Shown in pieces: positions 3,635 to 35,530 of a stretch of 35,530 bases of DNA. Below the pieces are notes generated by a model. That model saw only the letters and a list, made by a program, of their open reading frames with translations. It did not search any database and was not told the DNA's origin. Numbering within the stretch: the stretch's first letter is position 1; each line of letters begins with the position of its first letter. This DNA comes from Lobosporangium transversale (Eukaryota), in the NCBI RefSeq assembly GCF_002105155.1, contig NW_019029082.1:1-35530 (forward strand), read 5' to 3'. The position numbers and the translations under genes are program-made.

Positions 3635-3646
3635 TGGTAGCAAAGG
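3635..3646 (+). promoter_or_regulatory. Primer-binding site TGGTAGCAAAGG, likely tRNA-iMet
   Basis: Abuts the LTR and is complementary to a ...GCUACCA tRNA 3' end. The same 12-mer follows LTR-C at 19645-19656. Confidence 0.8.
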
Positions 3647-3784
3647 TTCATCGAACCACCGACCCCGCCAGAAACCGCTTATATTTCCCTCTGATATTTT
3701 TCCCTAGATCCCTCTGATATTTTCCTAGATAAAATTTAAAAATTTACCCCTGCATTTGATTTTTTTTTTTTTTTTTTTTTTGCC

Positions 3785-4756: not shown

Positions 4757-4809
4757 ACCAGGCCAGCCTCGCTCTCACCACCAACCCTCGAGTCCTGGGC
4801 TCTAGAGGG
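4732..4809 (+). promoter_or_regulatory. -1 ribosomal frameshift signal: G GGA AAA plus downstream RNA structure
   Basis: The heptamer is in the gag frame and the -1 frame is open from it into pol. The structure is conserved in family C. Confidence 0.8.
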
Positions 4810-8571: not shown

Positions 8572-8651
8572 CACCAAAATTATTTTTCTCTGTTTCTTTT
8601 TTCTTTATTTTTCTTCTTTTTTTTTCTCTTCTCTCTTCCTTTCTTCTTTTA

Positions 8652-9299
8652 CTATCTCCTTTCCTCTCTTCCTCTCTTCCTTTTACCTCCCTTCTCTGCC
8701 CACTCCAGCATGGTAACAACCGCCATTTCCTCCATCAATCGACGACGTTCCCGTGCTCGCTCTTCTACACTCACATCCTGGGTCTGCAATGCACGAAACT
8801 CAAACGCTATCAGCGAAGAACACTCTCTTATCATCGACAGCCTCGGTCCCTCATGACGACTCCTCTTCCGTCGCCTCTCCGGCTCCTCAGGACCATCCTC
8901 TCCATCAACAGCTTCCCACTGTGCATTGTCACTCGTCGAACTTACAGAAGCCAAACGGACCCCAGCCCCCTCCACTCCCGACGTCGCTGAAGTACTCGAC
9001 TCCACATGATCTCTGGCTTCCCTCACAGTTGGCGAATCGCCCACCTCAGGATACTCCTCCTTCGGTAGCATCCGCCCCAAGATTACAGGTGAAAGACGTG
9101 GAGACAATTCCAACCTCGTATCTAGCTCTTCCTCCTGAGGCACAGAATAAGGCTGTGTGGCGTCAGGGTCATCTGAAGAACCCTGGGAGCTTGGTACCGC
9201 CGACCGCTGTGTCAATACAACTTCAGAAAACACGCCACCAGAAGGAGCACGACCTTTACGCGGTGGCATTGGATGAGAAGCCTTGCGTGAAGACATCAT
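8652..9299 (-). CDS. Antisense 215-aa ORF between pol and the 3' LTR, unknown function
   Basis: Open frame bounded by pyrimidine/poly-T tracts; basic clusters RRRKRSR and KRKRGR; charged helical C-terminus. No recognised domain. Confidence 0.45.
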   Translation of the reverse strand: MMSSRKASHPMPPRKGRAPSGGVFSEVVLTQRSAVPSSQGSSDDPDATQPYSVPQEEELDTRLELSPRLSPVILGRMLPKEEYPEVGDSPTVREARDHVESSTSATSGVEGAGVRLASVSSTSDNAQWEAVDGEDGPEEPERRRKRSRHEGPRLSMIRECSSLIAFEFRALQTQDVSVEERARERRRLMEEMAVVTMLEWAEKGGKRKRGREERR

Positions 9300-9357
9300 G
9301 GAGACTTTTTTCCTTTTTTTGAAATAAGCAAAGAGGAATGAGGAAAGAATGCAACAC

Positions 9358-9570
9358 TGTAAATAGTAACAATCAAAGGTGATCTTAGGTGGAATCGAAG
9401 GTCAAAGGATACTTTATTTGGCTATAACGTAGTGGACTATTTATACTGATAATTGATAGGGTTGGGGCTTGGTGTCTTGGCACTTGGGCTTGGCGTCTTG
9501 GCGCCTGGGGTGCGCGTGATAGTTGAGCCCTCCTCAAAGGTTTGAGTCAGTATTGTATAACACGTTTGCA
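9358..9570 (-). mobile_element. Solo LTR-A, inverted, inside the family A element
   Basis: Reverse complement of 3422-3634; 5-bp TSD AACAC at 9353-9357 and 9571-9575. Confidence 0.95.
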
Positions 9571-9804
9571 AACACGAACTCACCAACTCCATCGCCACTC
9601 ATTCACCCATCCTCATCCACATGATCTGCATGAACCGCATGACCAGTAATTTTAACCAATCAGACATCACCACATCTTTTTTTTATTTATTTATTATTTT
9701 ATTTATTTCTCCTCTCTTCTCTTCGTTTTCTTTATTTCCATCAATTTTTTTTTTTTCTCTTTTCTTCTTCGATTTATGATCTCCTTCATTTTTGACGGGA
9801 AGGA

Positions 9805-10017
9805 TGCAAACGTGTTATACAATACTGACTCAAACCTTTGAGGAGGGCTCAACTATCACGCGCACCCCAGGCGCCAAGACGCCAAGCCCAAGTGCCAAGA
9901 CACCAAGCCCCAACCCTATCAATTATCAGTATAAATAGTCCACTACGTTATAGCCAAATAAAGTATCCTTTGACCTTCGATTCCACCTAAGATCACCTTT
10001 GATTGTTACTATTTACA
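9805..10017 (+). repeat. 3' LTR, family A
   Basis: Appears identical to the 5' LTR; preceded by a polypurine tract. Confidence 0.95.
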
Positions 10018-11497: not shown

Positions 11498-12034
11498 TGT
11501 CAAGGACTGACAAAGGGTTTGCAAGGAAAGGTAAGTGAATGAATAACAAGAATGATAATGAGCTGAGAACTAGAATGGATTCACGAATAGTTTTATTGCA
11601 GACTGAGGTTTACTATGTTACAAATCTATCATATTTATACTTGTTTGACTGAAGCGGAGACGCGCTTCAAGAACTCTAAATAAAGCTTACTCAAATATTT
11701 CCTAAGGACTTTTACCATATGCGGAACTTCAAGTGTTGAGTTAACTTAATACACAGGATCCGAGGAAGATATCTGGTGCAATCTTATTTCAAGGTTCCTT
11801 GGCACTATAAGCCTTGGTTATTGGTTTATAGCTCTTCTAGAATCCTTGGAGCTATTCACGGAGCTAGAAAACTAGGAGACGCGACTTGGCTTGACAGGCA
11901 AACTATGCATGGAGGAATGAGTGAAGGAAATGGGCGGAACAAATTAATCAAGCACACGTGATCTTTTTCAGATTCGAATCAGACAAAAGTCATTCATCAA
12001 TTCATGAGCTAGACATTGCTTGCTGTTCGTGACA
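11498..12034 (-). repeat. 5' LTR, family B
   Basis: TGTCA...TGACA ends; near-identical to 18133-18669 (two substitutions seen). Confidence 0.95.
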
Positions 12035-12712
12035 GTAGAACTCCTTGGCTCATTTCTGGGAGGAGTAATCCATTGATATTCGGTAGGAGACCTAATAGGG
12101 GAGAGATCGGCTTCAGTGGGCAGTTGTGGCGATCTTCGAGGCGGAGTGAAGGGTGTGCCTGAAATCATTTGGTCGATATTTCCTTCGCTATACCAACCAC
12201 CAAGATCGTTGTATGAGAGTAGGTTATTGATATCAAAAGGGAAAGACATTTTACTATCTGAAGATTGCGAATAAAGTAGGTTGACAATGAGGATGAGATC
12301 GAGAATGAGATTGAGAATGATGTTGCCCATTTCTCGCAAATTCTATTATTTCTAATTAAAAACGAAGATTGAATTGGTTTGGTGGCCATGCATCTAATTC
12401 ATTCCTTCTATTCAAAAAATATATGCATTTTTGTCTTCGTACGTAAATTTTTATTTTTCAAATTTTTAATTCAAATTGAGTATTGTAAAATATATCCAGT
12501 TTATGACTTTTTGGCGAGGACTCTATTTCTACGTCTAGCCAGAATTGCTTAAATTTAGCCAAAAAAAAATATAAAAAATTGCCAATTTTATATTTTTATC
12601 ATTTTTTACCATAAAAGACCCGACTTTTTAGACTATAGAGGTTATCAACATTAGAAATCTCTATTCTATTAGTCATCTATGCTCTAGCCTAGAGTCCTTT
12701 AAAACCGTAGTG
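12035..12712 (-). mobile_element. Possible 5' end of a CACTA-like DNA transposon, with an ORF start (MSFPFDINN...) interrupted by LTR-B
   Basis: Minus strand begins CACTACGG at 12712; only one end is visible. Confidence 0.3.
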
Positions 12713-12716
12713 ACTA

Positions 12717-12921
12717 CAGTGGCTTCCAAAATTGTCCACATGTTCCACGCCCATGTTTTCCATCTTGATTAGAATAATAGCGATGTTTGCTTGCACTTTT
12801 ATCTTTATCAGAATAAACAAGTATGCCAATGATAAGTGTACTGGTCCAGTTTAAAATATCTCTAGTCTCATTCATCATGGTTTTTCATTGACAACAGTAT
12901 TTAATGTCATTTGGACAATTA
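12717..12921 (+). mobile_element. Orphan left end of a Tc1-like element
   Basis: TA followed by CAGTGGCTTCCAAAATT, resembling the TIR at 14468; no partner end. Confidence 0.5.
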
Positions 12922-12923
12922 TA

Positions 12924-14141
12924 CACTATCATGCAAAACTGAAAGTATAATTCATTCCCATGTCCATTTCTTTTTCTCATTCCTAGAAACCGTATATGCA
13001 TACACCACTCACACTTTGGTTTAATAAAGCTCCCGTCTTCTTCTACGTCATAGTTATGCGCTGTGGCATTAGCTTGTCTCATTTAGAAAGTTAATGACTT
13101 TTTTGTTCATGCACGTCTCTCTTTCAGTTTTGCATGTGCTCTCAAATGTTGCCCATGACAACATCTGGTCGTCATTAAATGCGAATAAAAGAAGGACGTT
13201 CTCTCTTTCCTTTATGAACACTTGCTTAACTCTCTCTTAACTACACCTTCACAGAATATGAGACCCACTCCACAAAGGAAAGTCAACGAAGCCAGGAGGT
13301 GAATGATGGCAGGCATGTCTACTAGAGAAGCTGCTGCTAGTGTCGGTATATCACAATGGACGGCCAACAAGATCTATGCAAAGAATAAAGAGTACATGCC
13401 AGTTAATAAAGGTGGTCGACCAAGGAAATTACCTATAGATATCACGCAGTATCTTAAGGTGAACATGAAACGAGGTACACTCAAGTCTGCAGTTGAGGCC
13501 ACCGTCAGGGCCAACCAGCTCATACCAGCGGCTGTTTCTGAGACCACCGTTAGACGACGGCTCAGGAGTCGGGATTGACAGCAAAGAGGCGTGTACGTAG
13601 GCCAGCTCTGCGGCGAAGACATATTAAAGCCCGTTTGCATTTTCACAACAAGTATAAGGAATGGACTCTGGAAGATTGGAAAAAGGTTATTTGGTCAGAT
13701 GAATCGAAAACAAGCCGAATCTGCTCTGATGGCGCGCAGTGGATCTGGGACGCACTCCGAGACGCCTCACTCGCAGGTCGGTGTAAGGCACTGTCAAGTT
13801 TGGAGGTGGTAACGTTAAAGTGTGGTCATGCTTCTCAGCTGTTAGTGACGCCCATGGTTGGAATACTATCTATTGATGTAAGGATATGGCTTACAAAAGA
13901 ATAAAGATCTTCGGCCATCGAATGAGCACATGCAAAACTGAAAGAGAGACGTGCATGAACAAAAAAGTCATTAACTTTCTAAATGAGACAAGCTAATGCC
14001 ACAGCGCATAACTATGACGTAGAAGAAGACGGGAGCTTTATTAAACCAAAGTGTGAGTGGTGTATGCATATACGGTTTCTAGGAATGAGAAAAAGAAATG
14101 GACATGGGAATGAATTATACTTTCAGTTTTGCATGATAGTG
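12924..14141 (+). mobile_element. Internally deleted Tc1/mariner element with 218-bp TIRs
   Basis: 12924-13141 is inverted at 13924-14141; TA on both sides; degenerate transposase ~13258-13830 (GGRPRKL, VSETTVRRRL, WKKVIWSDESK) with a stop and frameshifts. Confidence 0.9.
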
Positions 14142-14478
14142 TATTAACAAGGTATCACTGACCGTTGATGGCTGGACAAGCCCTTTCCAAGACAACTTCC
14201 TGGGGGTAACAGCTCACTGGATTTATCATGACTGGCGCCAACAAGAGCTGGTCATTGGATTTGAGCCATTGTATGGAGCGCATACAGGTGAGAACTTAGC
14301 GGAATCTCTGGCTAAGGTCATCGATCGATTTAAAATTGGTGACAAGCTTCTAAGTATCACCACCGACAATGCGTCAAATATGTCCAAAATGATCCGAGAG
14401 CTAGAAAAACATCCCAAGGCAGTAGAATGGTAATTCTCAGTCACTTTCAATAATGCTAGCGCATCTACAGTGGTCATC

Positions 14479-14691
14479 TGTAAATAGTAACAATCAAAGG
14501 TGATCTTAGGTGGAATCGAAGGTCAAAGGATACTTTAATTGGCTATAACGTAGTGGACTATTTATACTGATAATTGATAGGGTTGGGGCTTGGTGTCTTG
14601 GCACTTGGGCTTGGCGTCTTGGCGTCTGGGGTGCGCGTGATAGTTGAGCCCTCCTCAAAGGTTTGAGTCAGTATTGTATAACACGTTTGCA
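14479..14691 (-). mobile_element. Solo LTR-A within the Tc1 left TIR
   Basis: TSD TCATC at 14474-14478 and 14692-14696; two substitutions versus the other A LTRs. Confidence 0.95.
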
Positions 14692-15017
14692 TCATCAAAA
14701 GTCATTCAATGATTTTGAATTTTTAACATTCTCATTCCTTTTCTTCATTCTCATCTAGCATGTGGCTAGTATATTTGGGGTAGTGCATTTGTTCCCCACA
14801 CCTCATGATTACTTTCATGTCTCATTCCTAATTATGACTTCATTGTGAAATAAAACCAATTTCAATTTGACCTGCCTATTGAATGACTTCTGCTGAATTT
14901 CAATGTTGATTGCAAAAAAAACTTTTTCACTTCTCTTTTTTCTACCAAGATTACCTTCAGCTATATCTTCATACACCTCTACTTACAATTAACATTCCAC
15001 ATCGTTTAGTATTTATT

Positions 15018-16036
15018 ATGAGGACGCTTTCTAGGGAAAAGGTACAAAATGCTCAGGCCTTACTTCGACAAGGGAAGTCTACAAGCGAAGTGGCAAGGCA
15101 ACTTGGTATCTCTATTTCATCGGCAATAAGGATCAGGAGGGACGTCAAGGACAATATTCCTAAACCCAGAATGGGCAGACCCTCATTGGTTTCCCCTGCT
15201 ACCAAGAGGGTTATTGCACGCGAGGTTGATAGGGGAAACTTAGATCCATTCTGGCAGTTCAAGAATACATCAGATCGAGCCATGGAGTGCATGTCAGTGC
15301 AGAGACTGCCCGACGCTATGTAAAATCAGAGGGTTTGAAAAACTATGGCCGCCCATTCAAGCCTAGGCTGACAAAAATGCAGATTGCGAAAAGGAAAAAT
15401 TTTGCCCTCAACCACCTTGACTGGACTGTTGATGACTGGAAGCGAGTGATGTTCTCGGACGAAAAGCTTTTTGGAAGGCTAGGGTCCTTAGGAGGAAGAA
15501 CACAATATAGGCGACCCGGCCACAGGACTTTAGAAGATCAAGATGTTAGAGAGAGATCAAGGAGAGCACATAACAAACTTATGTGGTGGGGCTGTATCAC
15601 TTATCATGGTGTAGGCGATGGTTGCAGGATCCCTGTCACAGTTGATTCCTCTTTATATGTTGATGTTCTACAAGATTATGTCCTCGGCTCATGGAAGTGG
15701 TATGGCCAGGACCCTGAAAAGTTAATTTTTCAGCAGGACAATGCAAGTGTTCATACGAGTAGGATGGTTAAAGAGTTCTTAATTAAGTCACACATTACCA
15801 CTTTGGAGTGGCCTCCAGATTCTCCTGACCTCAACCCTATCGAGAATGTATGGGCCTACATGGATCATCGGCTCAAGGGATATGAGAAGGTACCAAAGGA
15901 TCTGGATGAACTATGGGAAAGACTACAGGATATCTGGACATCTATTCCACCTGACTTCCTTGATGAGCTATATGAAAGTATGCCACGAAGGGTAGAGGAG
16001 CTACATCGCAAGAAAGGAGGTCGTACACATTACTGA
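15018..16036 (+). pseudogene. Tc1 transposase with one frameshift near 15245
   Basis: HTH and GRP motif, then FSDE, FQQDNA and SPDLNPIENVW with 34 residues between D and E. Confidence 0.9.
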
Positions 16037-16768
16037 AGAACAGAAAAAAAAAACAAATAAAGCAAAGCTCCCGATTTTCTTCAAATGGCATTCAATGAGA
16101 TGCCAATAATTGGCATTCATCTAAATTTTCAATTAGCAACAGGAGCTCATTGACATTGTAGTAGGAGTGACATTGTCGATGGTCGAACTCGCTACGTAAG
16201 TTTCATTAGCGACAAGCAAGATCAAATTGGAGAAAGGAATGAGAATGTCGAAATTCCTAATTCATTGAATGACTTTTGATGACCACTGTAGTAATGAGTT
16301 ATCTCTAACGCTTCTCTTAAAAAAAATAAAAATAAATAAAAATAAAAAACATTAGGCCGCTCAAGGATGGCTTATACCATGTGCCATGCCTTGGACGCAT
16401 CATTAATCTGGCAGTTCAGGCGATTTTGGGCCCAAGTGGTTTGAATGACTTGGCTCCTGAAAATGACAGTCTCTACGTGAACAACAATGAGTGTGAGGAT
16501 GCGGTTGGGTTAACACTTGTAACGCTGAGTACATTACAGAAACTCAGAAAAGGCATTGTTAAGATCAGGTCAGTATTACTCTATAATCTTTGCACCATAT
16601 AGACCCATATAGCGTATACGATGATTTAATTTACCACTCACGTGGGGCAGACGATATCTTATAGTATATAAGATGTCGTCTGTCCAGAAATAAAGACCCC
16701 TCTCTTTGTCCTATTGAACTTTGGTTCCATATACATAGTAAGCTATATCAATTAGGCTAAAACATTGC

Positions 16769-17557
16769 ATTCTTGTAGCTGCGCAGACACAATTGTAGAA
16801 GCCAGACTGATTGCACGAGCCTCCTTATCTTGACTCAATCTCGATATATCCTCTACTTCTTCTACGTTATTTTTAGATGGTGCGAGAGCATTCCCATAGG
16901 TGCTGTCTTCACCGGATGGTTCAACTGGCCCCCACACTATTTCTGGCTCGGAATCTGACACATCCGAAGAATAGTCTCCACCATCATCACAGTCGTGCTC
17001 TTCAGGATCCGTATCAACGTCGCTAGCTTCATCATGATTGTAGAATTCGGAGCCTAGCTCAAGGTCTTCAGCTGCATCCTCACCGTTACTCGAAATTAAG
17101 GTATCAGTGGTGAGGACCTATAATTTGCATCAAGAAAAATAATTAATTATAAGCTAATCGAAATAGCTAGCATGTTCGTGATATTTATAAATACCATTGT
17201 GGACGGCTAATATTATCTATCTCAGAGAGGAGGAAGACAGAGAGTTAGAAATGAAGTAGGCTAATTTGAATTTACGCGTTTTTTTTTTTTTTTCTTTTTT
17301 TTAAAAAAATAAAAAGGTTACCTGGGACAGGAGATGGACTACAGAAACACGAAAAGGGCCTGAATGGAGTCTGCAGGAGAGCGATCCTGACATAAATAAA
17401 ATAGTAATGAGCGATGGAATAGGATTAGATGGCGATTGTGATTCGGAAGAAGCAACTGGCAGAAAAGGGTGGATTTAGCAAATAGCCTACTACGTCACCT
17501 CATTATAAATTCTAACAAAAAAATACCACTACGCAACTTGAGTATTTAAGGGAATTC
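16769..17557 (-). mobile_element. Truncated left end of MULE-1, inverted copy of 26646-27434
   Basis: 789-bp reverse-complement match including the TIR and the transposase start. Confidence 0.92.
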
Positions 17558-17795
17558 TTGCTAGGTCAAAGCGTACCACGGAAATGATACATATATCCTA
17601 GGATTTTTTCGGACTTAGACCTTCCTTTTTTAGTCTAACCGTTCGGATAAATTATTGGTAATCTATACTTAGATTCATTTAGATCTTACGTCATGACTGA
17701 CTCAATCTGAAACAATCTAGGAGTTTCCGGATGAGACCCGATTTGGATAATGATTCCTTTTTGGGTTACCGTTCACCCTCTCTCCCGAGAGTCCG
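17558..17795 (+). repeat. Displaced, slightly diverged fragment of the Penelope-like terminal repeat
   Basis: Reverse complement of ~30899-31137 with a few substitutions; bounded on both sides by MULE TIRs. Confidence 0.9.
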
Positions 17796-19448
17796 GAATT
17801 CCCTTAGATGTGATACCATTAAGGGTGATAATAAAGGCGATTTTAATACGTCATACTTTTTTTTTTTTTTTTTCACGCGTTTGCACAAAAACGATCTTGA
17901 TATCAATTCTTCTTATATACCTCTGTCTCTCCAGGTAAAAATCGTTGATAATATTCAGCTCGCAAACTGTTGCCATTACGCGTCGAATGTTGAATGAACT
18001 CTGAATGTAAATCAACATGTGTATTATTTTAGATCATTTCATCGAACAAGCATTATGGTGCGGAGGCTATGTTACCTTATCAATAATAAATATTTGCACA
18101 TATATTAATCACCTCTCGGTTCTCCTTGACCTTGTCAAGGACTGACAAAGGGTTTGCAAGGAAAGGTAAGTGAATGAATAACAAGAATGATAATGAGCTG
18201 AGAACTAGAATGGATTCACGAATAGTTTTATTGCAGACTGAGGTTTACTATGTTACAAATCTATCATATTTATACTTGTTTGACTGAAGCGGAGACGCGC
18301 TTCAAGAACTCTAAATAAAGCTTACTCAAATATTTCCTAAGGACTTTTACCATATGCGGAACTCCAAGTGTTGAGTTAACTTAATACACAGGATCCGAGG
18401 AAGATATCTGGTGCAATCTTATTTCAAGGTTCCTTGGCACTATAAGCCTTGGTTATTGGTTTATAGCTCTTCTAGAATCCTTGGAGCTATTCACGGAGCT
18501 AGAAAACTAGGAGACGCGACTTGGCTTGACAGGCAAACTATGCATGGAGGAATGAGTGAAGGAAATGAGCGGAACAAATTAATCAAGCACACGTGATCTT
18601 TTTCAGATTCGAATCAGACAAAAGTCATTCATCAATTCATGAGCTAGACATTGCTTGCTGTTCGTGACAGACCTTGCTTTCTGTGTAGAGTTCAGAAGTT
18701 ATTGAGGATAGTCTGTTGGATGATGTAGATGAAATAGATCGCGCTGATGATCTAGAAGAATTCGATTCTGACTGTGAGCATGGGAGCGAGGAATCAGACT
18801 CTGACCGGGACTCGTGGAACGTTGACTACAATGACTATTCGAGTGGGGCTTCGGATTCCGACCCAGAAATAGAGCCTGAATCATCTGCAGCTCCTGTTGA
18901 AGCCATTAGCATCCATCCTTCTGCGGATTTTGGTACCGGGGAAAGCTCACTCATGCCGGGTGGCTCAGAGAGTCCAGAACTAGACGAGAGTGTCATTGCG
19001 AACGCCAATGAAATAGCAACTGAGATTTTGTGCTCGGAGGTGCATGATTACCAATGGATTAAGTCGACTCTCGATGATGAAACGATCAAAGACATTGTAA
19101 ACGACTCCCGTACAGAACCGTATGACTACCTGCCCCGTATTTTTTACGTGAACGAGGAGGACTTCAGCGCTTGGCTTGAACAGGATAGTCTCGATCATTA
19201 TTTTGTTTGGATGCGCCGTGTACATCGAGATAATAAGGCAGATGGCAGAAGCAAATACTTTTATTTTCAAACCCACGAATGCCACCGTAACCATGACTCG
19301 CGAGGCCAAAATCGCGTTCAAACCGCTCAACAAGACTCCCCTCAAGACTCCTCTCAAGATTCCCCTCAAGACCCTGGGCAGGAACAAGGAGGCGCGTCTT
19401 TAAGAAGAGCCAAAAAGTTGGATGTAGAGCAAAGCTTCTAGTCCACAA
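17796..19448 (+). mobile_element. 5' part of a second MULE family (MULE-2), truncated by LTR-C
   Basis: Starts GAATTCCCTTAG like the MULE-1 TIR. ORF 18716-19441 resembles MULE-1 (YQWIKST, YDYLPRIFYV; KVGCRAKLLVH after a frameshift). Confidence 0.8.
18133..18669 (-). mobile_element. Solo LTR-B
   Basis: TSD GACCT at 18128-18132 and 18670-18674. Confidence 0.95.
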
Positions 19449-19710
19449 TGCAAGCGAAATCACTATAATAATTTTGTGCAACATAGTATTTCGCCCATAT
19501 TTCTAGAGCATTCCTTGCAACAGGATATTAACTAGTATAAATAGGTCTACTTTTCTATCTAGTTCTGTAGCATAGTTCCCCCTGAATAAAGATACCTTTA
19601 TTGCACCCTTAGATCCCCCTAGAACACTACCTTGATTTTTGCATTGGTAGCAAAGGAAACCACGACCACACCCAGAGAACTACAATTACCATTGAATTTC
19701 ACCCCTCGCC

Positions 19711-20682
19711 ATGGAACACTTGAATAACGCCCTTTCGTCCATCGATCTTCCTCTGAACATTCGCGAAGCCATAGCTACTGCTTTTAATCAGGCCCTCTCT
19801 ACTGCCAAAGCCAACGAAGCCGCTGAGAATGACCTAGCCAGAACCCTCGCCACGGTCCTAAAGCCACAGAAGCCTACGCCTTACGAAGGAGCTATTAACG
19901 CTGTTGCAGCCTTAAACTTTGTCGACAGCCTGGAGGAGTATTACACTATTGTCACACTCACGCCATCCAAATGGGTTCGATACGCTGTCCTCAGTCTCAA
20001 TGGCGAAGCCAAGGCATGGTGGAGAGATTCCGGGTTGAATCTCGATACACCTTGGGCTGACTTCCGTAAAGCATTCCTCCGTCAGTTCACCCCTCCAGAT
20101 TCTGCGAATGCAGCTCGCCGAGCGTTGGATAAACTTCGTCAGGGAAGGATGAGTGTGGCAGAATATACGAGCAAGTTTAGAAGCCACCTACGTCTGGCTA
20201 CAAATCTCGACAAAGACTCTGCTTTGCAAAAATACATGCTAGGCCTTGAGCCCGAAACAAGCAAGCAGGTAAGACTTAGACAGCCAGAGACGTTGGACGA
20301 TGCCATTGAGCAGGCGACCATTGTCCACAGTATTCTACATCCCATCGATGCCACCCCTGTATCCGCTACCCCGAACGCCTTATCACCCCATCATGAGAAT
20401 AATTCTGGCCCTACACCAATGGATCTCGATAACATGAGAATGTTGGTTGCCAACCTGTACACCTCTCTCCATCAGCAACGACCAAACAGAAACCACTCCA
20501 AGCCAAGCTCGCTACCCAAGCTCACAGCAGCTGAACGAGAACGTTGCGTTCGTGAGGGGCGTTGTTTCAGATGCCGGAACCGAGGTCATAGAGCCGAACA
20601 ATGCCAACGCACCTCTGTCTTTAATATAGAAAACAATGACCATACGCTTTCTGAGTCGGGAAAAGAGGAGGGCGAGCAGTAA
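19711..20682 (+). CDS. gag: Gag, family C
   Basis: Colinear with family A Gag; CFRCRNRGHRAEQC knuckle. Confidence 0.93.
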   Translation: MEHLNNALSSIDLPLNIREAIATAFNQALSTAKANEAAENDLARTLATVLKPQKPTPYEGAINAVAALNFVDSLEEYYTIVTLTPSKWVRYAVLSLNGEAKAWWRDSGLNLDTPWADFRKAFLRQFTPPDSANAARRALDKLRQGRMSVAEYTSKFRSHLRLATNLDKDSALQKYMLGLEPETSKQVRLRQPETLDDAIEQATIVHSILHPIDATPVSATPNALSPHHENNSGPTPMDLDNMRMLVANLYTSLHQQRPNRNHSKPSSLPKLTAAERERCVREGRCFRCRNRGHRAEQCQRTSVFNIENNDHTLSESGKEEGEQ

Positions 20683-21859
20683 ACCAGGCCTGCCTCGCCC
20701 CCTCTAGCCCCAGCCTTCAAGCCCTGGATAATAGAGGGCATGGTCAGTTACAGTTGATGACTACAAATAAAAATCCTTTGTGCACAAATATAACATCCAT
20801 GCCCCTTTCTGATCACTCTATTGCTCCCACTGCATCTACTTCCTTACATCTACTCTCTAAGTATTCACCTCATCCTGATCCCCATTCCCCTACTCATTCC
20901 TCATTGCTAAAAAACAATCCCCTCTCCGACCCTATTTTCCCCTCCACTGATCCTTTCACTGTTTCCACTTCACTCACTTCCACTCATTCATCTACCCCTA
21001 GTTCATCCAATCGCCACTCCCATTGTCGTAACGAAATTCGCCTTCAATCCTTCAGCCTTACCTATGACAAACATAAAAACTCTCGCCGACTCCTTACTTT
21101 CATTGGAGCAGTGAATGGTCGACCTGCGCGCATTCTTGTAGATGGAGGGGCCGAAGGCAATGTCATAAGTTCCTCTTTCTGCGAGAACACACATGTTCCG
21201 CTAATTGAGGGTAGACCCATTCCTGTCATTCTTCCCAACGGTACCGAGACAATTGCTCAGCACACAGCCACGTTCACCCTCGCCCGCAACGCGTATCAGG
21301 ATAAAATCAACGCCATTGTTTATCCTCTATCCAAATACGACCTAATTTTGGGTAAACCATGGCTGATGGATATCAACCCTCGCATCAATTGGCGAACAAA
21401 TGATCTGCATTTTGAATACCAAGGTACCCCGGTCTTGTGGCCTTGCACTGGCATCGACAGGAAGCCTAGACAGCGATCTTCCGTCATATCTGCTCTTAAC
21501 TTCCTTACCGTTGCCTCGGAACCTGATGCCTCTGTATTCCTCGCCCAAGTTCGAGTTCCAGTACCTGTCTCTAGCAGTAGTTCTGAACTACCGGACTCTA
21601 TCAAGCAAATCGTTCAAGTCGAATTCCCTGATGTCTTTTATACAACGCTTCCTGATGGCCTTCCCCCTGACAGAGGTGATAGCATGCGTATAGAGACTGA
21701 CCCTTATGCTGACCCACCTGTCCGACCTGTCATCAGATTGTCGATCGCTGAGCTTGATGAACTGAAGAAGCAGCTAACTGATCTTTTACAAAAAGGATTA
21801 ATCTCACCGAGCACCTCACCATACGGTGCTCCAGTCCTCTTTCTGAAGAAAAAGGATGG
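20658..21859 (+). pseudogene. pol: Truncated Pol, family C (protease and first RT residues)
   Basis: G GGA AAA at 20658-20664; LVDGGA; SPSTSPYGAPVLF. Confidence 0.9.
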
Positions 21860-22382
21860 TGTCACGAACAGCAAGCAATGTCTAGCTCATGAATTGATGA
21901 ATGACTTTTGTCTGATTCGAATCTGAAAAAGATCACGTGTGCTTGATTAATTTGTTCCGCTCATTTCCTTCACTCATTCCTCCATGCATAGTTTGCCTGT
22001 CAAGCCAAGTCGCGTCTCCTAGTTTTCTAGCTCCGTGAATAGCTCCAAGGATTCTAGAAGAGCTATAAACCAATAACCAAGGCTTATAGTGCCAAGGAAC
22101 CTTGAAATAAGATTGCACCAGATATCTTCCTCGGATCCTGTGTATTAAGTTAACTCAACACTTGGAGTTCCGCATATGGTAAAAGTCCTTAGGAAATATT
22201 TGAGTAAGCTTTATTTAGAGTTCTTGAAGCGCGTCTCCGCTTCAGTCAAACAAGTATAAATATGATAGATTTGTAACATAGTAAACCTCAGTCTGCCATA
22301 AAACTATTCTTGAATCTCCTAAGTTCATTCTTGTTCCTAAATCACTTACCTTCTCTTGCAATCGTCCTGTCAGTCCTTGACA
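21860..22382 (+). mobile_element. Solo LTR-B variant with a divergent 3' part and no TSD
   Basis: Matches the other B LTRs to ~22296, then diverges but ends TGTCAGTCCTTGACA; flanks GATGG/TTAAT. Confidence 0.9.
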
Positions 22383-26645: not shown

Positions 26646-29600
26646 GAATTCCCTTAAATACTCAAGTTGCGTAGTGGTATTTTTTTGTTAGAATTTATAA
26701 TGAGGTGACGTAGTAGGCTATTTGCTAAATCCACCCTTTTCTGCCAGTTGCTTCTTCCGAATCACAATCGCCATCTAATCCTATTCCATCGCTCATTACT
26801 ATTTTATTTATGTCAGGATCGCTCTCCTGCAGACTCCATTCAGGCCCTTTTCGTGTTTCTGTAGTCCATCTCCTGTCCCAGGTAACCTTTTTATTTTTTT
26901 AAAAAAAAGAAAAAAAAAAAAAAACGCGTAAATTCAAATTAGCCTACTTCATTTCTAACTCTCTGTCTTCCTCCTCTCTGAGATAGATAATATTAGCCGT
27001 CCACAATGGTATTTATAAATATCACGAACATGCTAGCTATTTCGATTAGCTTATAATTAATTATTTTTCTTGATGCAAATTATAGGTCCTCACCACTGAT
27101 ACCTTAATTTCGAGTAACGGTGAGGATGCAGCTGAAGACCTTGAGCTAGGCTCCGAATTCTACAATCATGATGAAGCTAGCGACGTTGATACGGATCCTG
27201 AAGAGCACGACTGTGATGATGGTGGAGACTATTCTTCGGATGTGTCAGATTCCGAGCCAGAAATAGTGTGGGGGCCAGTTGAACCATCCGGTGAAGACAG
27301 CACCTATGGGAATGCTCTCGCACCATCTAAAAATAACGTAGAAGAAGTAGAGGATATATCGAGATTGAGTCAAGATAAGGAGGCTCGTGCAATCAGTCTG
27401 GCTTCTACAATTGTGTCTGCGCAGCTACAAGAATACTCTTGGATTGAGTCGACGGTCCCAGAGGCTAAGATTAAGGATATTGTTGATGGCCTCAGGATTA
27501 AGAAACAGGACTACGATTATTTGCCGCACGTATTCTATGTGGACAAAAGGGACTTTGAACTGTGGAAAGACCGAGATGGCAGCGATCACTTTTTTATTTG
27601 GAATAAAGGCAACTCTGAGATAAATGGTAGAAATGAAGACAATGAAGACTCTGAAATCACCAACGACAATGATAGCAAAGGCAAACTGCGTTCATTTCAA
27701 CTTTATTTCTGCCACTGTGCAGGCGCCCCACGCAAAAAAAAGATTACTGACCAAGATCAACTACTTGAGAGGCCAGCCAAGAAAACTCGCAATGTTTATA
27801 AACCGACCAAGAAAGTAGGCTGTAAAGCCAGGCTAATTGTTCATGACGTAAAACCCGATATGGAAGAGTTCGCAAGTAGAGGAGAAAGGAACCAGCTGCG
27901 TGTGATATATTACTACAAGCACACTGGGCATACTCTTGCCAGTCTCGAGGACTTTCAGCATCTCAGAGTGACAGAAGAAACAAAATCGCGAATTCGAAAC
28001 CTTGTCCGTTTAGGTCTCTGTACAAGAAAGATTCTGACAAGGATAAACCTGACTGGTAGCCAGGCATTCTCGCGACACCAAAGAGGGTCTTTAGAGCGTG
28101 ACCATGTCCTGAAGTATGAGGATGTGTACAATATTTATTATAAATATTCAAGTGGGCAGAGTCAGCTTGAAAAGAATGACTTAGTCTCGATGAGGCTGTG
28201 GATGGACAAACTAAAGGACAAGGGCTTCACTGTATTCACACTCGCCTACCACATCATAATAGACGGAGTGAATCATGCAAGATTTGCATATGGGTTTATG
28301 TCGCCGTTCCAGAAATCAGTTTATGGATCCAATTTTAAACACATTGGGCTAGATTCAACACATGGAACAAATCGCTCTAAACACGAGCTTTACACCATAA
28401 TTGTGCGGAACCCACAAAGTCTGAGTGCTATCCCAGTTGCCTTCTTGCTTACGAACGATCATAGCCATGTACCGTTGGCAAGATGGTTGACACATATCAG
28501 AGAAACCATTGGCTCACCTGAATACATCACCACTGATGATGCTCGAGCAGAATATAAAGCAATCCGATTGGCGTTTGGAGACTCAGCCACAGTTCATTTA
28601 TGTCTATGGCATGTTATGAAAGCTTGGAGCACCAAGCTTCGAAGTGTTATCCGTGCAACGCAAGACAAGGCTGCTAAGGAGTTGAGGGAAGAAGCGATGG
28701 GAGAGCTCCGTAGAATTTTGTTTGATCCAAACCGTACGCGAGCTGAGACTCTTATTTCAGAATTCGAGTTGAAATGGCAGGATCATAATGAGGGCAAAGT
28801 CTGGAATTATTTTAGGGAACGCTACCTCAGTGAAGACCGAAGGAGAAGGTGGATGAAATGTTATCGTATGGGAAAGTTTTATGCTGGGATGGATACTAAC
28901 AATTACGTCGAGTCCTGGCACAACCACCTTAAGTCGCACTTCTTACGAGGTTATACAAACTGCAGAGGAGATAGATTGATTTATATCTTAACTCATGATG
29001 TAGATGAGTTTTACCAAATGATGGCAATGCAGACCGTGCGGCGCTATGGGCGACATTCAAAAGGCGAGAGAGATGACATTCACCAAAGAAAATTTCTAGA
29101 TGGACTAGAAGACCTTCCACAGCGCATTGTTCACGAGCAGCAAGTGGGTGACCGAACCGTTTACTGTGTGCGCTCGTTCTCCGTATCTGGCGGATATTAT
29201 TTCGTGGTTGCCACGAATCAAACTATCTCAAGATGTAACTGTCAGTACTTTATGTATTCTCAGCGCCCCTGCAGACATATGTATCTTTTGCATCAAGTTC
29301 ATAAGGATAACCCAGACCCACCGCTCCACATCATACACGATGTCCTTGAGAGGGTCCCTGATAGACATGCTATGATCCAGAATTACCAAGATGGCCTGGA
29401 AGGGGATGTTAACCCAAGCATCAGTGATGCCCTGTTGGAGGTAGAGGATGCTGAAGCAGAGGAGGTTGCTGAGGCAGAGAGGATTGCTGATGCGGTTACT
29501 GAATCTTTGGAGATACTCAAAAAGGGCCTCCATGATTCAGATAGCATTGTGAGATGTCCCGACGCAGCAAGGGAGTTAAGTGATATGGTTGAACGGTATT

Positions 29601-30666
29601 TTTCTTTACAAAGAACGATAAATACATCTGGGAACCAAAAACGGCAGCGCCAATAAAAAAAATTTTTTTTACATGTATATATTTGATTTAAAAACTATTC
29701 AATCCAATTCAATCAAAGAGAGCACAATCAAAATAGCCAATCAGAAATCAGGATTTCATTTCTTTTTTTTTTTTTACAGAACGATGAAAAAAGAAAATCC
29801 ATTCTCTGTTGATGGAGAATATCTACAAGACTGAAAATCATATATTTGGTAGGGAAGACCCATCGGTACGATTTAAAAAAAAGTTGAAAAGATTCGGTTA
29901 AGTCTTCAGTAGGATACCTCCATTCAAAGAACTTGTACATCGAAAATAATCAGGATTATGATCATCTTCTTTCGTTCAAAAGTAATATTACTCTGTCAGT
30001 AATGGCGATACACATTGTAAAATATAGATTCAAGTAGCCAAAAGCTATATCTATAAGTCGTATATATGCACTCCAAGGAACCAGCAATGCGGTTGTCAAG
30101 AAAATGGCCATTGAATTCTCTAAATAGAGTAATATCTGGAATTTATAGTCTCTCCTTCATCTTTAAACAACAAGGATTGTTATTTTTGTAAACTAAGTCG
30201 CTGTAAAAATACCACAGTTGGATTCAGCATTGACATGTCCTTTTAACCTGAAAATATGGTGAAGTTTGAAGGTTTTATCATAGAGCTCTACTTTTTTTAC
30301 TAATTTCAACGAAACATTTTTTTAGACAAGTGTCTACCAAGCTATACTTGGTTTCCAAAGTCAGTTTTTATGTCACTACGGATACTCAATTTCTTCAGAA
30401 ACTTCAATTGCTACCCTAGATCGCTTTATATTAGTGTCTTTTGTCATTATCCAAAGTTTGGTTTGGATTGAGATTCATTTGAATGACTTTTACATATGAG
30501 AACTGGTTTTCCCATATGATTATGGACTTAGAGACAGGTTAGATTGAACTTCCATGTATATTTCGGCTCACATGACCCACATGGCCCACATGACTTGTAT
30601 GGAAATAACTTTTATTTTTTATAAGGGCGTCTCATATTTGGCCAACTTGAGTATCTAAGGGGACTC
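26646..30666 (+). mobile_element. MULE-1, full-length Mutator-like DNA transposon
   Basis: 24-bp imperfect TIRs (GAATTCCCTTAAATACTCAAGTTG versus GAGTCCCCTTAGATACTCAAGTTG, three mismatches); intact transposase; no TSD visible. Confidence 0.88.
27006..29656 (+). CDS. MULE transposase with SWIM zinc finger, ~857 aa
   Basis: LDSTHGTN, TTDD, CLWH, TNNYVESWH and CNC..PCRH. Predicted ATG-only exon 27006-27008, intron 27009-27085, exon 2 open from 27086. Confidence 0.9.
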
Positions 30667-30760
30667 CTTATTTGGAGCCAGCAAACCGGTTATTTGTGGC
30701 TTTCTACTCCTTAACTAGGGTCACGTGACAAAATTTATTTTAGGTATCTATTTTTAGGGT
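30667..30760 (-). repeat. Remnant of an older Penelope-like terminal repeat
   Basis: Matches ~31143-31237 with one substitution and one T fewer; ends at TTTTTAGGGT. Confidence 0.85.
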
Positions 30761-31289
30761 TTTTGATAAGTAGGATGGGTTTTTTTGTGAAAAAGTGGAA
30801 AAAGTGACTGAGAGTGAGAAAGAAGACTGCGGGACAAGTGCTTGTTTCGATCTTTTCTCTTCAGCCTTGTCTTCTTTTTATACTTTTTTCACGCCTCTCG
30901 GACTCTCGGGAGAGAGGGTGAACGGTAACCCAAAAAGGAATCATTATCCAAATCGGGTCTCATCCGGAAACTCCTAGATTGTTTCAGATTGAGTCAGTTA
31001 TGACGTAAGATCTAAAATTAATCTAAGTATAGATTACAAATAATTTATCCGAACGGTTAGACTAAAAAAGGAAGGTCTAAGTCCGAAAAAATCCTAGGAT
31101 ATATGTATCATTTCCGTGGTACGCGTCGACCTAGCAAACAGGTTTATTTGGAGCCAGCAAACCAGTTATTTGTGGCTTTCTACTCCTTAACTAGGGTCAC
31201 GTGACAAAATTTATTTTTAGGTATCTATTTTTAGGGTCTATTTTTAGGGTTCTATTTTAGGGTTTTTTTAGGGTTATTTTTAGGGTTTT
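30756..31289 (-). repeat. Proximal pseudo-LTR
   Basis: Appears identical to 34383-34916 (offset 3627). Confidence 0.95.
30819..30877 (-). ncRNA. Type I hammerhead ribozyme
   Basis: Minus strand AAAGAAGAC-AA-GG CTGAAGA GA-AAAGA-TC GAAA CAAG-CA-CTTG TC / CC-GCA-GTCTTCTTT; predicted GUC cleavage between 30833 and 30832. Confidence 0.85.
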
Positions 31290-31316
31290 CTTTTAGGGTT
31301 ATTTTTAGGGTTAGGG
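31213..31316 (+). repeat. Internal variant telomeric repeat tract
   Basis: TTTTTAGGT, TTTTTAGGG, TCTATTTTTAGGG, TTATTTTTAGGG etc., ending in TTAGGG. Confidence 0.9.
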
Positions 31317-31472
31317 TCAAGGAGGGTCAGCTCTGGCCTATACCATGAACCTGAGAAAACTCCTAAAAAATCTAAAGAAAACTTACTAAGTCTAAAAAAC
31401 CGGACCTATTTTGTCGGGGATGAGGGCTAGTTATAATATAAGATACGGAAGAGATCTCATTGAACTAGTCAT

Positions 31473-34367
31473 CTACAATCGACTCCTTATTGGGGCGGAT
31501 TGGAGAATCTTTTTATTATAGGTGTTCAACTGGTTGCGCAGGTTGGAGCCTTTATAAATTATCCATGTGGTTTGTGTATTCTCATAACGGGCAGGTTTGA
31601 GGGTATGGATATCTCGTAGAATCATACGTCCAAACTGTTCAAGTTTGTCACGTCCAGGGATGTTATGGAGGAACATTTTTTTGATAATAGTATCATTTTT
31701 CTGAGACGAGGGTGCCGGGTACAAAAGAGTATTCCGTTCATCGTATGAGTGTAATCTGAGTTGATTGTTGATTACATGTGAGGGGTAGTTTCTATTAAGA
31801 AGATGTTGGGCAAATTGTGCTGTGGCATGGGTGTGGAAAGAAGACTGACTAGAGTTTCTAATTAGTCTTTGGTTTTCACCATTAATCCAGTTAAAAACAT
31901 ATTTCCTAGGGTAGTATGTATCTGGATCAGTGTATAGGTGTTTATTAACGGGTTTGTCGAAAGGAGCAATAGTAAATCGGGTTGGACTAGTATTGTTATC
32001 GACAGAAATAAGAAGGTCGAGCATAACTACTTGTTGACCATTGTTACCATGGTCGATAGTGATATTAAGACTTTGACAAGAGGCATAAATCTGATGAAGT
32101 TTAATGTCAATGTATGGTTTCAAAAGATTGAATGTCTCTTTAGACCAGGGAAGGTTATCATGTTTGGTAGTTCTGATTATGGCAAAGCCATCATCTATAT
32201 ACCGGAACAGGGTGATGTCAAAGAAATCGAGTTTATAGAAAAACATTGGGGAATTAGTGCCAACTGGAAGGTTGTCAGGAAAAACTCCATGGAATTGTTG
32301 TTGTTTCTCTACGCAGCATGCAAAGAGGCGGGCTATGGTGGGTGCCATGGGAGTTCCCATAGCTAAGCCTTTGACTTGTCTGTAATTATTTGTAAGGTCA
32401 GAGACAAGGCAGTTCTTATTAACCCATTCTGCGAGTTTCAGACATATTTGGATTTCATAATTGTAAGAATGATTGCAGAAGTAGTGTAGTATGGTTTTTC
32501 TGGCTTCTTCAAAGTCGATGTTACCATACATGTTGATGACGTCGAAAGCTGCTAATGAGTAATGGCAGTAAGGATCAAAGTCAAAATTTTCTAGATAACG
32601 TATTAGTGTGGGGGTGTCGGGAAGATCTCTAGGGAACTCATTAAGTAGAGGGCGCAGGTTTCTATCGACAAACTGACTAATAGTGTGTGTTATCCAAGGG
32701 AAAGAGGGGACTATAGGTCTAGCACCGGGTGGTGACTTATGTATTTTAGGTAAAAGATACATAACTGGGACAGTATAGAAGTTAGGATTGGTTCTAACAT
32801 TATCTCTTATTAGTTTAGCTTCTGAGAGTAATTTATTTTTAATTCTAAGAGGACTAAGATTGACTATAGAAAAGAGTGAGTTTATCATATTGTCAATGGA
32901 GAACGAAGGGCACGGGACATAACAGGAAGTATCTGTTAGAAGTTTCGTAGTCTGGGATGTATACCAGTCTAGGTCCATAATAGTGAGTCCTAAGTTTTTA
33001 TCAGCAGGGCCAATGATAAGTTTATGGGTAAGCATAAAGTTAATGGTCTTGTTGATTTTGGAAAGGAGTTTTTTGTGAGGATTGTTTTCTCTGATTTTAG
33101 TTATATTATTAATTAACTGAGGTTTGTAGGCATCGAACAGAACATTAGCTAGATTAATATCTAGTTTATTAATATTCCTACAAAGTTGGTTACGCAATTT
33201 CTTTAGTTCTGAGCTCAGAACAACATAGTTGGGAGGTTTATGTATATTGAAATTGACTCCTTTATTTAAGACTTGAAGAATATCATGGGGGATGGATTGT
33301 ACGGAAGACATATTGTTGACTCCGACAAAATCATGTAAATCTACTTTTTTTGTTTCTGAGGGGATGGGGCTTTTTTCACGGGGCCTTTTCCTTTCTTTAC
33401 ATGGGTGGTTTTCTTGGAGGACGTTGGGGGACCACCTTTCTTCTTGTCTTTCTTCGCCATCGATGGGCCTTTTGGTCCTTTGTATTTGTTGGTGTCGTTC
33501 TGTCGACGTGATGGCTTGGGTTTGCTTGGCTTCTTCTTCGAGGCGTCCTTCTTGGTATTCTAGAGGGAAAGTAGAGTTGATCTTAGAATAGATTATATTT
33601 AATCGTGGAGCAAACCAAAGGGAAACAATTATCTTGAATACCTTTAATCCAAGATTTAATTGCTGGAATTCTGCAGTGGCTCGTAATACTTGCACTTGAG
33701 CAGAAAACTCAATAGCAGTGGCACGAATCAGCTTGTAGGTGAAGTCTTTACCCAGATTATTCAGATGAGAATTGTTTTCAACGGCCACAAGGGCAGATGA
33801 AAGGGTGTCCGCTAGCTGTCTGGGGAGGGTGTCATTGAGTTCACTTTGGCATTGTTGGATGATATTTGCTTTGTCAGCTTTAATGGCCGATACTAACAAA
33901 TTGTCAAACGAAGTGCTAAGTGTAGCAAGGACGTCCTTTGACAGGGTAACACGGTTATTGTTGACAGTAAGATGTCCCCAATAGCCTAGTTGTGTCTTAG
34001 CGTTGACTTCACGCAGAATCTTCTGAGCCATTCGGATTTTATCCAAAAGAATGGCCGCCTTATTGACAAATTTGCTTAAGATGTCTGCGGCAACCCTGTC
34101 AGTCATCGTTCCCTTTTTGAAAGAGGGAAGATAGGAACCAGGGTTCAGAGAGGTGTCACTATTCCCAATATGATTATTGAGACGAGCGACGAGCTGCTCG
34201 AGGGTGGGAAGGTCTGCCGGTGCAGTCCCTCCTCCCATCTCGGCATCGGCATCGATCATAGCCTGACCTGGAACTTGTTGACCTGGGGTGACTTGGAAGA
34301 CATCCTGGTTTCCACGGGCAGAGCTTGACGATGAGGAGGGGCCGGGGGCAGCGTGAGTATTGACCAT
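31473..34367 (-). CDS. Penelope-like reverse transcriptase ORF, 964 aa unspliced
   Basis: PADKNLG, LPKIHK..RPIV, FDVINMY, GLAMGTPMAP, FRYIDD, MLDL and DKP motifs; the C-terminus ends without an endonuclease. Confidence 0.93.
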   Translation of the reverse strand: MVNTHAAPGPSSSSSSARGNQDVFQVTPGQQVPGQAMIDADAEMGGGTAPADLPTLEQLVARLNNHIGNSDTSLNPGSYLPSFKKGTMTDRVAADILSKFVNKAAILLDKIRMAQKILREVNAKTQLGYWGHLTVNNNRVTLSKDVLATLSTSFDNLLVSAIKADKANIIQQCQSELNDTLPRQLADTLSSALVAVENNSHLNNLGKDFTYKLIRATAIEFSAQVQVLRATAEFQQLNLGLKVFKIIVSLWFAPRLNIIYSKINSTFPLEYQEGRLEEEAKQTQAITSTERHQQIQRTKRPIDGEERQEERWSPNVLQENHPCKERKRPREKSPIPSETKKVDLHDFVGVNNMSSVQSIPHDILQVLNKGVNFNIHKPPNYVVLSSELKKLRNQLCRNINKLDINLANVLFDAYKPQLINNITKIRENNPHKKLLSKINKTINFMLTHKLIIGPADKNLGLTIMDLDWYTSQTTKLLTDTSCYVPCPSFSIDNMINSLFSIVNLSPLRIKNKLLSEAKLIRDNVRTNPNFYTVPVMYLLPKIHKSPPGARPIVPSFPWITHTISQFVDRNLRPLLNEFPRDLPDTPTLIRYLENFDFDPYCHYSLAAFDVINMYGNIDFEEARKTILHYFCNHSYNYEIQICLKLAEWVNKNCLVSDLTNNYRQVKGLAMGTPMAPTIARLFACCVEKQQQFHGVFPDNLPVGTNSPMFFYKLDFFDITLFRYIDDGFAIIRTTKHDNLPWSKETFNLLKPYIDIKLHQIYASCQSLNITIDHGNNGQQVVMLDLLISVDNNTSPTRFTIAPFDKPVNKHLYTDPDTYYPRKYVFNWINGENQRLIRNSSQSSFHTHATAQFAQHLLNRNYPSHVINNQLRLHSYDERNTLLYPAPSSQKNDTIIKKMFLHNIPGRDKLEQFGRMILRDIHTLKPARYENTQTTWIIYKGSNLRNQLNTYNKKILQSAPIRSRL
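33341..34367 (-). CDS. Predicted spliced 314-aa ORF1-like protein with a Lys-rich tail (exons 34367-33642 and 33559-33341)
   Basis: GTATTC...CTAAG...CTCTACTTTCCCTCTAG 82-nt intron; the spliced frame gives 72 aa with 25 Lys. Confidence 0.6.
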
Positions 34368-34382
34368 CTTGAGAGGAACTTG

Positions 34383-34916
34383 AGGGTTTTTGATAAGTAG
34401 GATGGGTTTTTTTGTGAAAAAGTGGAAAAAGTGACTGAGAGTGAGAAAGAAGACTGCGGGACAAGTGCTTGTTTCGATCTTTTCTCTTCAGCCTTGTCTT
34501 CTTTTTATACTTTTTTCACGCCTCTCGGACTCTCGGGAGAGAGGGTGAACGGTAACCCAAAAAGGAATCATTATCCAAATCGGGTCTCATCCGGAAACTC
34601 CTAGATTGTTTCAGATTGAGTCAGTTATGACGTAAGATCTAAAATTAATCTAAGTATAGATTACAAATAATTTATCCGAACGGTTAGACTAAAAAAGGAA
34701 GGTCTAAGTCCGAAAAAATCCTAGGATATATGTATCATTTCCGTGGTACGCGTCGACCTAGCAAACAGGTTTATTTGGAGCCAGCAAACCAGTTATTTGT
34801 GGCTTTCTACTCCTTAACTAGGGTCACGTGACAAAATTTATTTTTAGGTATCTATTTTTAGGGTCTATTTTTAGGGTTCTATTTTAGGGTTTTTTTAGGG
34901 TTATTTTTAGGGTTTT
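34383..34916 (-). repeat. Distal pseudo-LTR merging into the telomere
   Basis: Direct repeat of 30756-31289; ends 16 nt upstream of the ATG. Confidence 0.95.
34446..34504 (-). ncRNA. Type I hammerhead ribozyme, second copy
   Basis: Same sequence as 30819-30877; predicted cleavage between 34460 and 34459. Confidence 0.85.
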
Positions 34917-35530
34917 TTTTAGGGTTTTTTAGGGTTTTTTAGGGTTTTTTAGGGTTTTTTAGGGTTTTTTAGGGTTTTTTTAGGGTTTTTTAGGGTTTTT
35001 TAGGGTTTTTTAGGGTTTTTTAGGGTTTTTTAGGGTTTTTTAGGGTTTTTTTAGGGTTTTTTAGGGTTTTTTTAGGGTTTTTTAGGGTTTTTTAGGGTTT
35101 TTTAGGGTTTTTTAGGGTTTTTTTAGGGTTTTTTAGGGTTTTTTAGGGTTTTTTAGGGTTTTTTAGGGTTTTTTAGGGTTTTTTTAGGGTTTTTTAGGGT
35201 TTTTTAGGGTTTTTTAGGGTTTTTTAGGGTTTTTTAGGGTTTTTTAGGGTTTTTTAGGGTTTTTTAGGGTTTTTTAGGGTTTTTTAGGGTTTTTTAGGGT
35301 TTTTTTAGGGTTTTTTAGGGTTTTTTAGGGTTTTTTAGGGTTTTTTAGGGTTTTTTAGGGTTTTTTAGGGTTTTTTAGGGTTTTTTAGGGTTTTTTAGGG
35401 TTTTTTAGGGTTTTTTAGGGTTTTTTAGGGTTTTTTAGGGTTTTTTAGGGTTTTTTAGGGTTTTTTTAGGGTTTTTTAGGGTTTTTTAGGGTTTTTTAGG
35501 GTTTTTTAGGGTTTTTTAGGGTTTTTTAGG
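34917..35530 (+). repeat. Telomere (TTTTTTAGGG)n
   Basis: About 60 T6AG3 units, some T7, with the G-rich strand running to the sequence end. Confidence 0.97.

Follow-up and report, generated by a model that had tools for sequence, protein, structure and literature searches.

Penelope-like elements (PLEs) are the closest relatives of telomerase, and both the making of their pseudo-long terminal repeats (pseudo-LTRs) and the role of their hammerhead ribozymes are debated (PMC8557442). These elements typically occur as one unit together with part of another, which is their usual pseudo-LTR arrangement (PMC8557442), and circles with more-than-unit copying were already proposed for them in 2014 (PMC4209133). 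In Terminons, telomere-complementary repeats lie right after the 3′-terminal hammerhead and are used for attachment (PMC6431247). The reverse transcriptase (RT) of the Anolis element Poseidon starts 111-118 nt into the open reading frame (ORF), with the ribozyme cut at 26 nt (PMC11167929, 2024), a cut-to-start distance of 85-92 nt by our subtraction. In this study, the one biochemical test of the matter, the ribozyme was protein-dependent, its mutation left insertion unaffected and the RT worked mainly on uncleaved RNA (PMC11167929). Here, we analyze a stretch of 35,530 nt of Lobosporangium transversale contig NW_019029082.1 (the window, to which all coordinates refer), carrying on its minus strand an element that we filed as an endonuclease-less telomeric PLE of the Coprina type, a label taken from the fungal host and the architecture; a neighbouring ORF matches a protein named for L. 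transversale at 100% identity over 59% of its length. Its repeats are identical, and the element copy is both young and intact. The reading that we favor, at slightly better than even confidence, is that its reverse transcription was primed by the G-rich chromosome end at a 9-nt site, the template most likely being a linear RNA that the adjacent ribozyme had not cut.

The insert comprises one unit of 3627 nt plus 534 nt (4161 nt, or 1.147 units), as an earlier note on this DNA had claimed: positions 30756-31289 are identical to 34383-34916 at an offset of 3627, with flanking mismatches at 30755 and 31290. This exact 534-nt repeat is a partial tandem with pseudo-LTRs, as in other PLEs. The proximal pseudo-LTR (30756..31317, minus strand) holds the 9-mer, the ribozyme, an upstream region and a degenerate telomere tract (31218..31317, minus strand) that is C-rich in the RNA and has no run of perfect T6AG3 repeats. 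The distal pseudo-LTR (34383..34916, minus strand), equal to 30756-31289, ends inside that tract, which the earlier note had not mentioned. Three ends are located in the tract in total (30759, 34916 and about 31306). Next to the distal copy stands the telomere array (34917..35530, plus strand), mostly TTTTTTAGGG (52 of the 61 units counted in 34900-35530). The element thus lies at the chromosome end with its 5′ end telomere-ward and with reverse-complement telomeric repeats near the hammerhead, the arrangement of endonuclease-deficient telomeric PLEs. This fungal telomere is itself of the TTTTTTAGGG type, and C-rich tracts matching it are also found in two close relatives, L001 and L002; the plant Cestrum elegans is the sole host of this telomere motif named in the available text of PMC10767889 and PMC10100673.

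On the other side, the insert abuts the remnant of an older copy (30668..30759, minus strand), likely the end that received it. This remnant corresponds to 31144-31236 of the element with one substitution and one indel in 93 nt, and ends in the first repeat of the telomere tract. The 9-mer AGGGTTTTT is found at both 30756 and 34383, and its proximal occurrence (30756..30764, minus strand) marks the junction, the probable start of reverse transcription and 3′ end of the element. The insert had been said to begin exactly at this 9-mer, and AGGGTTTTT does stand at 30756, but the homology seen at the junction is only AGGG(T), because the left flank is an older element copy terminating in ...TTTTTAGGG; the full 9-nt match would require T residues added by telomerase.

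A motif scan identified type I hammerhead cores on the minus strand at 34491 and 30864, within a proximal motif (30820..30876, predicted cut between 30833 and 30832) and a distal one (34447..34503, predicted cut between 34460 and 34459). The full core with stems I-III is present in both repeats and in L001 and L002, a trait of PLEs. Cleavage is only predicted, because Rfam gave no match at its gathering score, hammerhead included, and the active fold (-7.1 kcal/mol) lies 3.7 kcal/mol above the minimum-energy fold (-10.8 kcal/mol). The distal cut falls 92 nt upstream of the ATG and 68 nt upstream of the 9-mer at 34383..34391 (minus strand), itself 15 nt 5′ of the ATG, in agreement with the distance of about 70 nt given earlier. 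A second 9-nt telomere match occurs in the leader at 34404..34412 (minus strand). Within 31318-34844 these two sites, 34383 and 34404, are the only 9-nt matches to (T6AG3)n, and both lie in the 92-nt leader; shuffled leaders reached such a match in 12 of 2000 cases. An RT starting at the 9-mer passes the cut after 68 nt, which requires a template unbroken at that point, and the deduction of the earlier note that a template primed at this site has to span the cut holds.

The junctions of other copies were surveyed in contigs of four runs carrying the same organism label, three of DNA (X1-X3) and one, X7, that is probably RNA by a program's guess; X1 is possibly the source of the window itself, and a junction shared by X2 and X3 was counted once. 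Among the contig pieces listed, proximal junction types were tallied, and four of the five, including that of the window, start within 34383-34393. In X1, pure telomere repeats are joined at about 34393, the differing base being deduced from contig overlap. In X2 and X3, a stretch of the element's ORF (33096-33125) is joined at 34387 through a microhomology of 7 of 8 nt. In X7, the tract at 31258-31306 is joined to the 9-mer, which would define a ribozyme-bearing unit of 551 nt (30756-31306); this tract-to-9-mer junction is not listed in the three DNA runs. The contig pieces listed for the four runs show no junction at the second telomere match (34404..34412) and no loose end or joint at the cut site, the latter in favor of an uncut template. 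The X2/X3 and X7 junctions fit fresh starts at the 9-mer by a nascent DNA end, and such re-priming gives tandems with neither rolling nor a circle. X2 and X3 also contain a diverged, low-depth element copy at 32697-33009 (29 differences in 313 nt), which suggests a second subfamily. Contig depth over 30766-31852, about 1.7-2.3 times that of the 5′ half of the ORF in X1-X3, was not used as a measure of copy number. A coverage gap of X7 at 30848-31121 was likewise set aside, because records may be filtered.

Among 41 related loci, 22 of which have a hammerhead motif, L001 and L002 (about 50% amino-acid identity) show the order ORF, C-rich tract, hammerhead, about 70 nt, telomere-complementary motif, ATG. 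In both, this motif lies 68-75 nt after the cut, and none of 300 shuffles matched it at either locus. The orientation of the element, its position at the telomere and the lack of a GIY-YIG domain likewise support attachment to a telomere end. The expectation set out earlier, that proximal junctions of other copies would cluster at the 9-mer, was borne out, and together with the motif kept in both close relatives and the missing endonuclease this makes telomere-type priming at the 9-mer well supported, the priming event itself being deduced. Of the earlier interpretation, telomere priming and template continuity stand; the circle, which the heading of the note put forward, is not singled out among the three options (circle, template jump or uncleaved read-through RNA) that its author had listed.

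We propose that the RT would use the G-rich chromosome end as a primer at the 9-nt site 68 nt past the predicted cut, and would copy the pseudo-LTR, the ORF and then the leader. The extra 534 nt may reflect a read-through RNA of more than unit length, or a restart of the new DNA end at the same site on another template. Whether copying halted there or trimming followed, the product would end within the telomere-like tract of the element itself, and telomerase would add the cap at this end. Several observations weigh against the uncut linear template. All runs are available as contigs, in which RNA ends are not visible, and one junction type, in which foreign sequence of at least 255 nt is joined inside the ORF at 31823 (X1-X3), lies away from the 9-mer window. 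Of the 18 distant relatives tested, some of them near-copies, 17 lack the 9-mer (L025, a near-copy of L026/L027, and L029, with weak stems, were omitted from the 22 hammerhead loci in this test). As it is kept in L001 and L002, and among the 18 distant loci only L024 has a comparable telomere match (2 of 300 shuffles), the fixed 9-mer is a subfamily feature. In vitro, the monomer of a fungal PLE hammerhead is efficient at self-cleavage (PMC4209133), and RNA that escapes the cut may therefore be scarce. Finally, a TATA-like box (34504..34509, minus strand), a candidate promoter element found at the same place in L001, sits just upstream of the hammerhead, 18 nt before its core; because of this position the RNA would start inside the ribozyme, and one pass on one linear RNA could therefore not give the distal 534 nt. 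If so, the linear model may need one re-priming step.

Four distant relatives bear on the same question. Each has two hammerheads (L011:1700-2790, L015:2390-3490, L020:3365-4550 and L023:2240-3320). The first has the loop CACG and the core CUGAUGA (CCGAUGA in L020), and the leader after it consists of four exons and three GT-AG introns. The second has the complementary loop CGTG and, in all four loci, a core without A6; at its cut site begins an exactly spliced copy of the leader, with no mismatches in 267-278 nt. Between loci, the leaders are 54-67% alike. This suggests, from the sequences, a heterodimeric ribozyme pair, and that one copy is repeatedly remade from spliced RNA. A spliced duplicate that starts at the cut in four distant relatives points to end-joining there, which also counts against an uncut template. 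Contigs start within 50 nt of a hammerhead in 4 of 21 relatives (0.3 expected), a pattern that assembly breaks could explain.

The best-surviving alternative to the uncut linear template is a circle: cleavage at both hammerheads would release a 3627-nt monomer for circularization by a host tRNA ligase, and the RT, primed at the 9-mer, would go around it 1.15 times. We regard it as possible but rather unlikely, and the idea is not new. A circle matches the geometry exactly and suits the identity of the two pseudo-LTR copies; the ribozyme shows conservation, with 59 of 63 nt shared by L001 and L002, fungal motifs of this kind cut efficiently (PMC4209133), and type I hammerhead retrozyme RNAs were circularized by RtcB in vitro (PMC7229834). 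The spliced leader copies that begin at the cut in L011, L015, L020 and L023 also favor it, as does the X7 contig with the 551-nt junction, whose depth of 367 is the highest listed for X7, against 85 for the spliced ORF contig. Circle, uncleaved RNA and jump yield the same DNA, however, and the junction of a circle has the genomic sequence, so that the present data cannot show one. Only 1.15 rounds are seen, with no multimer in the window, and re-priming junctions account for tandems without rolling. Closed contigs among the relatives (7 of 41, terminal repeats of 53-123 nt) were rejected as evidence of RNA circles, tandem DNA giving the same. The Anolis element did not need cleavage in vitro, and its cut coincided with neither the start nor the end of any RNA-seq read (PMC11167929), and a 5′ hammerhead can serve translation instead (PMC13725137). 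A search by title or abstract start found no literature report of a circular RNA from an autonomous PLE.

An 82-nt GT-AG intron (33560..33641, minus strand), stop-free in the RT frame, is kept in the genomic copy and skipped in a contig of X7, a state known from PLEs. As its length is 3n+1, splicing shifts the frame and leads to a predicted protein of 314 aa with its stop at 33341, the last 80 residues being 33% lysine. Candidate introns occur at the same codon in L001 (100 nt) and L002 (94 nt); they, too, are of 3n+1 length and contain no stop in the RT frame, and the tails of the predicted spliced products consist of 34% and 25% lysine, respectively. An AATAAA inside the RT frame (33261..33266, minus strand) may be the poly(A) signal of a short spliced mRNA; the spliced X7 contig ends just past it, at 33257, at the adapter. 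Judged by the reading frames, splicing would thus give a basic ORF1-like protein, while retention would give the RT fusion. Conserved introns and a frameshift after ORF1 are drawn in other clades by Craig et al. (PMC8557442). No paper among those listed by a literature search reported an ORF1/RT-fusion splice switch in its title or the opening of its abstract, although the intron and the junction clustering may already be described in Gladyshev and Arkhipova 2007 and Arkhipova et al. 2017. More speculatively, and again with rather low confidence, there may be two ribozyme-made circles, an unspliced 3627-nt template for telomere-primed rolling RT and a retrozyme-like 551-nt circle of the pseudo-LTR, while a capped, spliced and internally polyadenylated mRNA would supply the basic ORF1 protein. 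If true, this would be direct proof of the circular intermediate of 2014, with a fungal retrozyme beside its parent.

Copying at the DNA level is improbable. An eroded end would have invaded a tandem-bearing end via AGGGT, with break-induced replication to the telomere. The family is multi-copy (several branches), the genomic copy retains its intron, and break-induced replication is reportedly favored by arrays of this type of element (PMC6431247). The homology shown at the junction is 5 nt only, in line with such an invasion, but the flank offers 92 nt of near-perfect homology to 31144-31236, a far better recombination site, and that this adjacent homology was unused argues against ordinary recombination. 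Moreover, different left partners all join within one 11-nt window, and the explanation covers the origin of the window copy only, the donor still needing an origin by RT. Least probable of all is a cleaved linear monomer on which the RT would make a 68-nt strong-stop complementary DNA up to the cleaved 5′ terminus and then switch to the cleaved 3′ terminus of that monomer or a different one: R2-type RTs are capable of end-to-end template jumping, the product would be the same and the splice-duplicate boundary of the four distant relatives sits at the cut, but the sequence runs exactly across the cut at both places in the window, and the contigs of the four runs, from which rare forms are dropped, list no 68-nt abortive copies, extra bases, loose ends or joints at 34459-34460.

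The coding capacity of the element is a single intact ORF of 964 aa (31473..34367, minus strand), with a helical N-terminal part, a TERT-like RT (YIDD) and no GIY-YIG domain; it extends about 240 aa past the YIDD. Its RT has 91 homologues, many with GIY-YIG (nearest E value, 4e-207), and the motifs DK, PK.HK, RP and Y/FIDD are conserved. No named Coprina or Athena protein was among the homologues found. Pfam assigned no family to the 964-aa protein itself, and searches of solved structures with the single sequence and with a 10-sequence profile did not find RT, which a 58-sequence profile did. With the predicted model, TERT made up 8 of the 10 top Foldseek hits, with low template-modeling scores (TM-scores) and LINE-1 ORF2p second. 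In the tree, the element's protein falls in a clade formed by P0001-P0010 (Shimodaira-Hasegawa-like approximate likelihood-ratio test, SH-aLRT, 99), separate from all 34 GIY-labelled rows of 98, labels that came from Pfam and from our own motif; the GIY-YIG motif occurs in none of 36 locus ORFs. By sequence, the product is a Penelope-type RT of the Penelope/TERT group. In viral contigs, none of 52 pattern matches was a relative.

The surrounding subtelomere is rearranged. A Mutator-like transposon (MULE; 26646-30667, ORF 27242-29656), at which no target-site duplication was seen, lies directly against the old element copy, at 30668. Its left 789 nt recur in inverted orientation (16769-17795 region) and there adjoin another element piece at 17558-17795, which equals 30899-31137 at about 97% and is followed by another similar end. 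It looks as if an old element copy was split by the MULE and then rearranged. Nested elements occupy 3418-10017, 11498-22316 and 15287-16036, with Ty3/gypsy chromovirus-type gag/pol ORFs, LTR-like repeats and a Tc1-type transposase.

The layout of the element is already known for the Penelope-like family; its value therefore lies in the test case and in the ORF1/RT-fusion splice switch. The window copy is intact, and both its ribozyme and its start site are mapped, which makes it a useful system for testing circle against linear template. The element resembles those of the Coprina type (Coprina-1_Alen, PMC13159263; PMC4209133) in being telomeric, with a TERT-like RT and no endonuclease, and in its direct repeats at both ends, type I hammerhead, telomeric repeats and helical ORF1-like region before the RT. 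It differs from them in its uninterrupted single ORF, where removal or retention of a 3n+1 intron would decide between ORF1 and the ORF1-RT fusion, in its TTTTTTAGGG telomere, and in a start site that is a single post-ribozyme 9-mer apart from the longer tract. With the bdelloid rotifer Athena/Terminon elements (PMC6431247, PMC8557442) it shares a short reverse-complement telomeric stretch just downstream of the 3′-terminal hammerhead, used there to attach to the G-rich overhang, and head-to-tail chains; unlike them, it measures 3.6 kb, has no accessory genes and a fungal host, and its telomeric stretch is shorter than one repeat and stands 68 nt from the cut. The Poseidon element of Anolis carolinensis (PMC11167929) is similar in its internal RT start at an A/C-rich site about 70-90 nt past the cut, at the pseudo-LTR/ORF junction, whereas it has a GIY-YIG endonuclease, a protein-dependent ribozyme and no homology between primer and start site. 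Finally, the 551-nt junction of X7 would define a non-coding tandem unit that is derived from the pseudo-LTR and has one type I hammerhead, like the non-LTR retrozymes (PMC7229834; bioRxiv 10.64898/2026.07.22.740005); those, however, are from animals, measure 170-400 nt and have been shown as circles, whereas the unit described here is seen in one junction contig.

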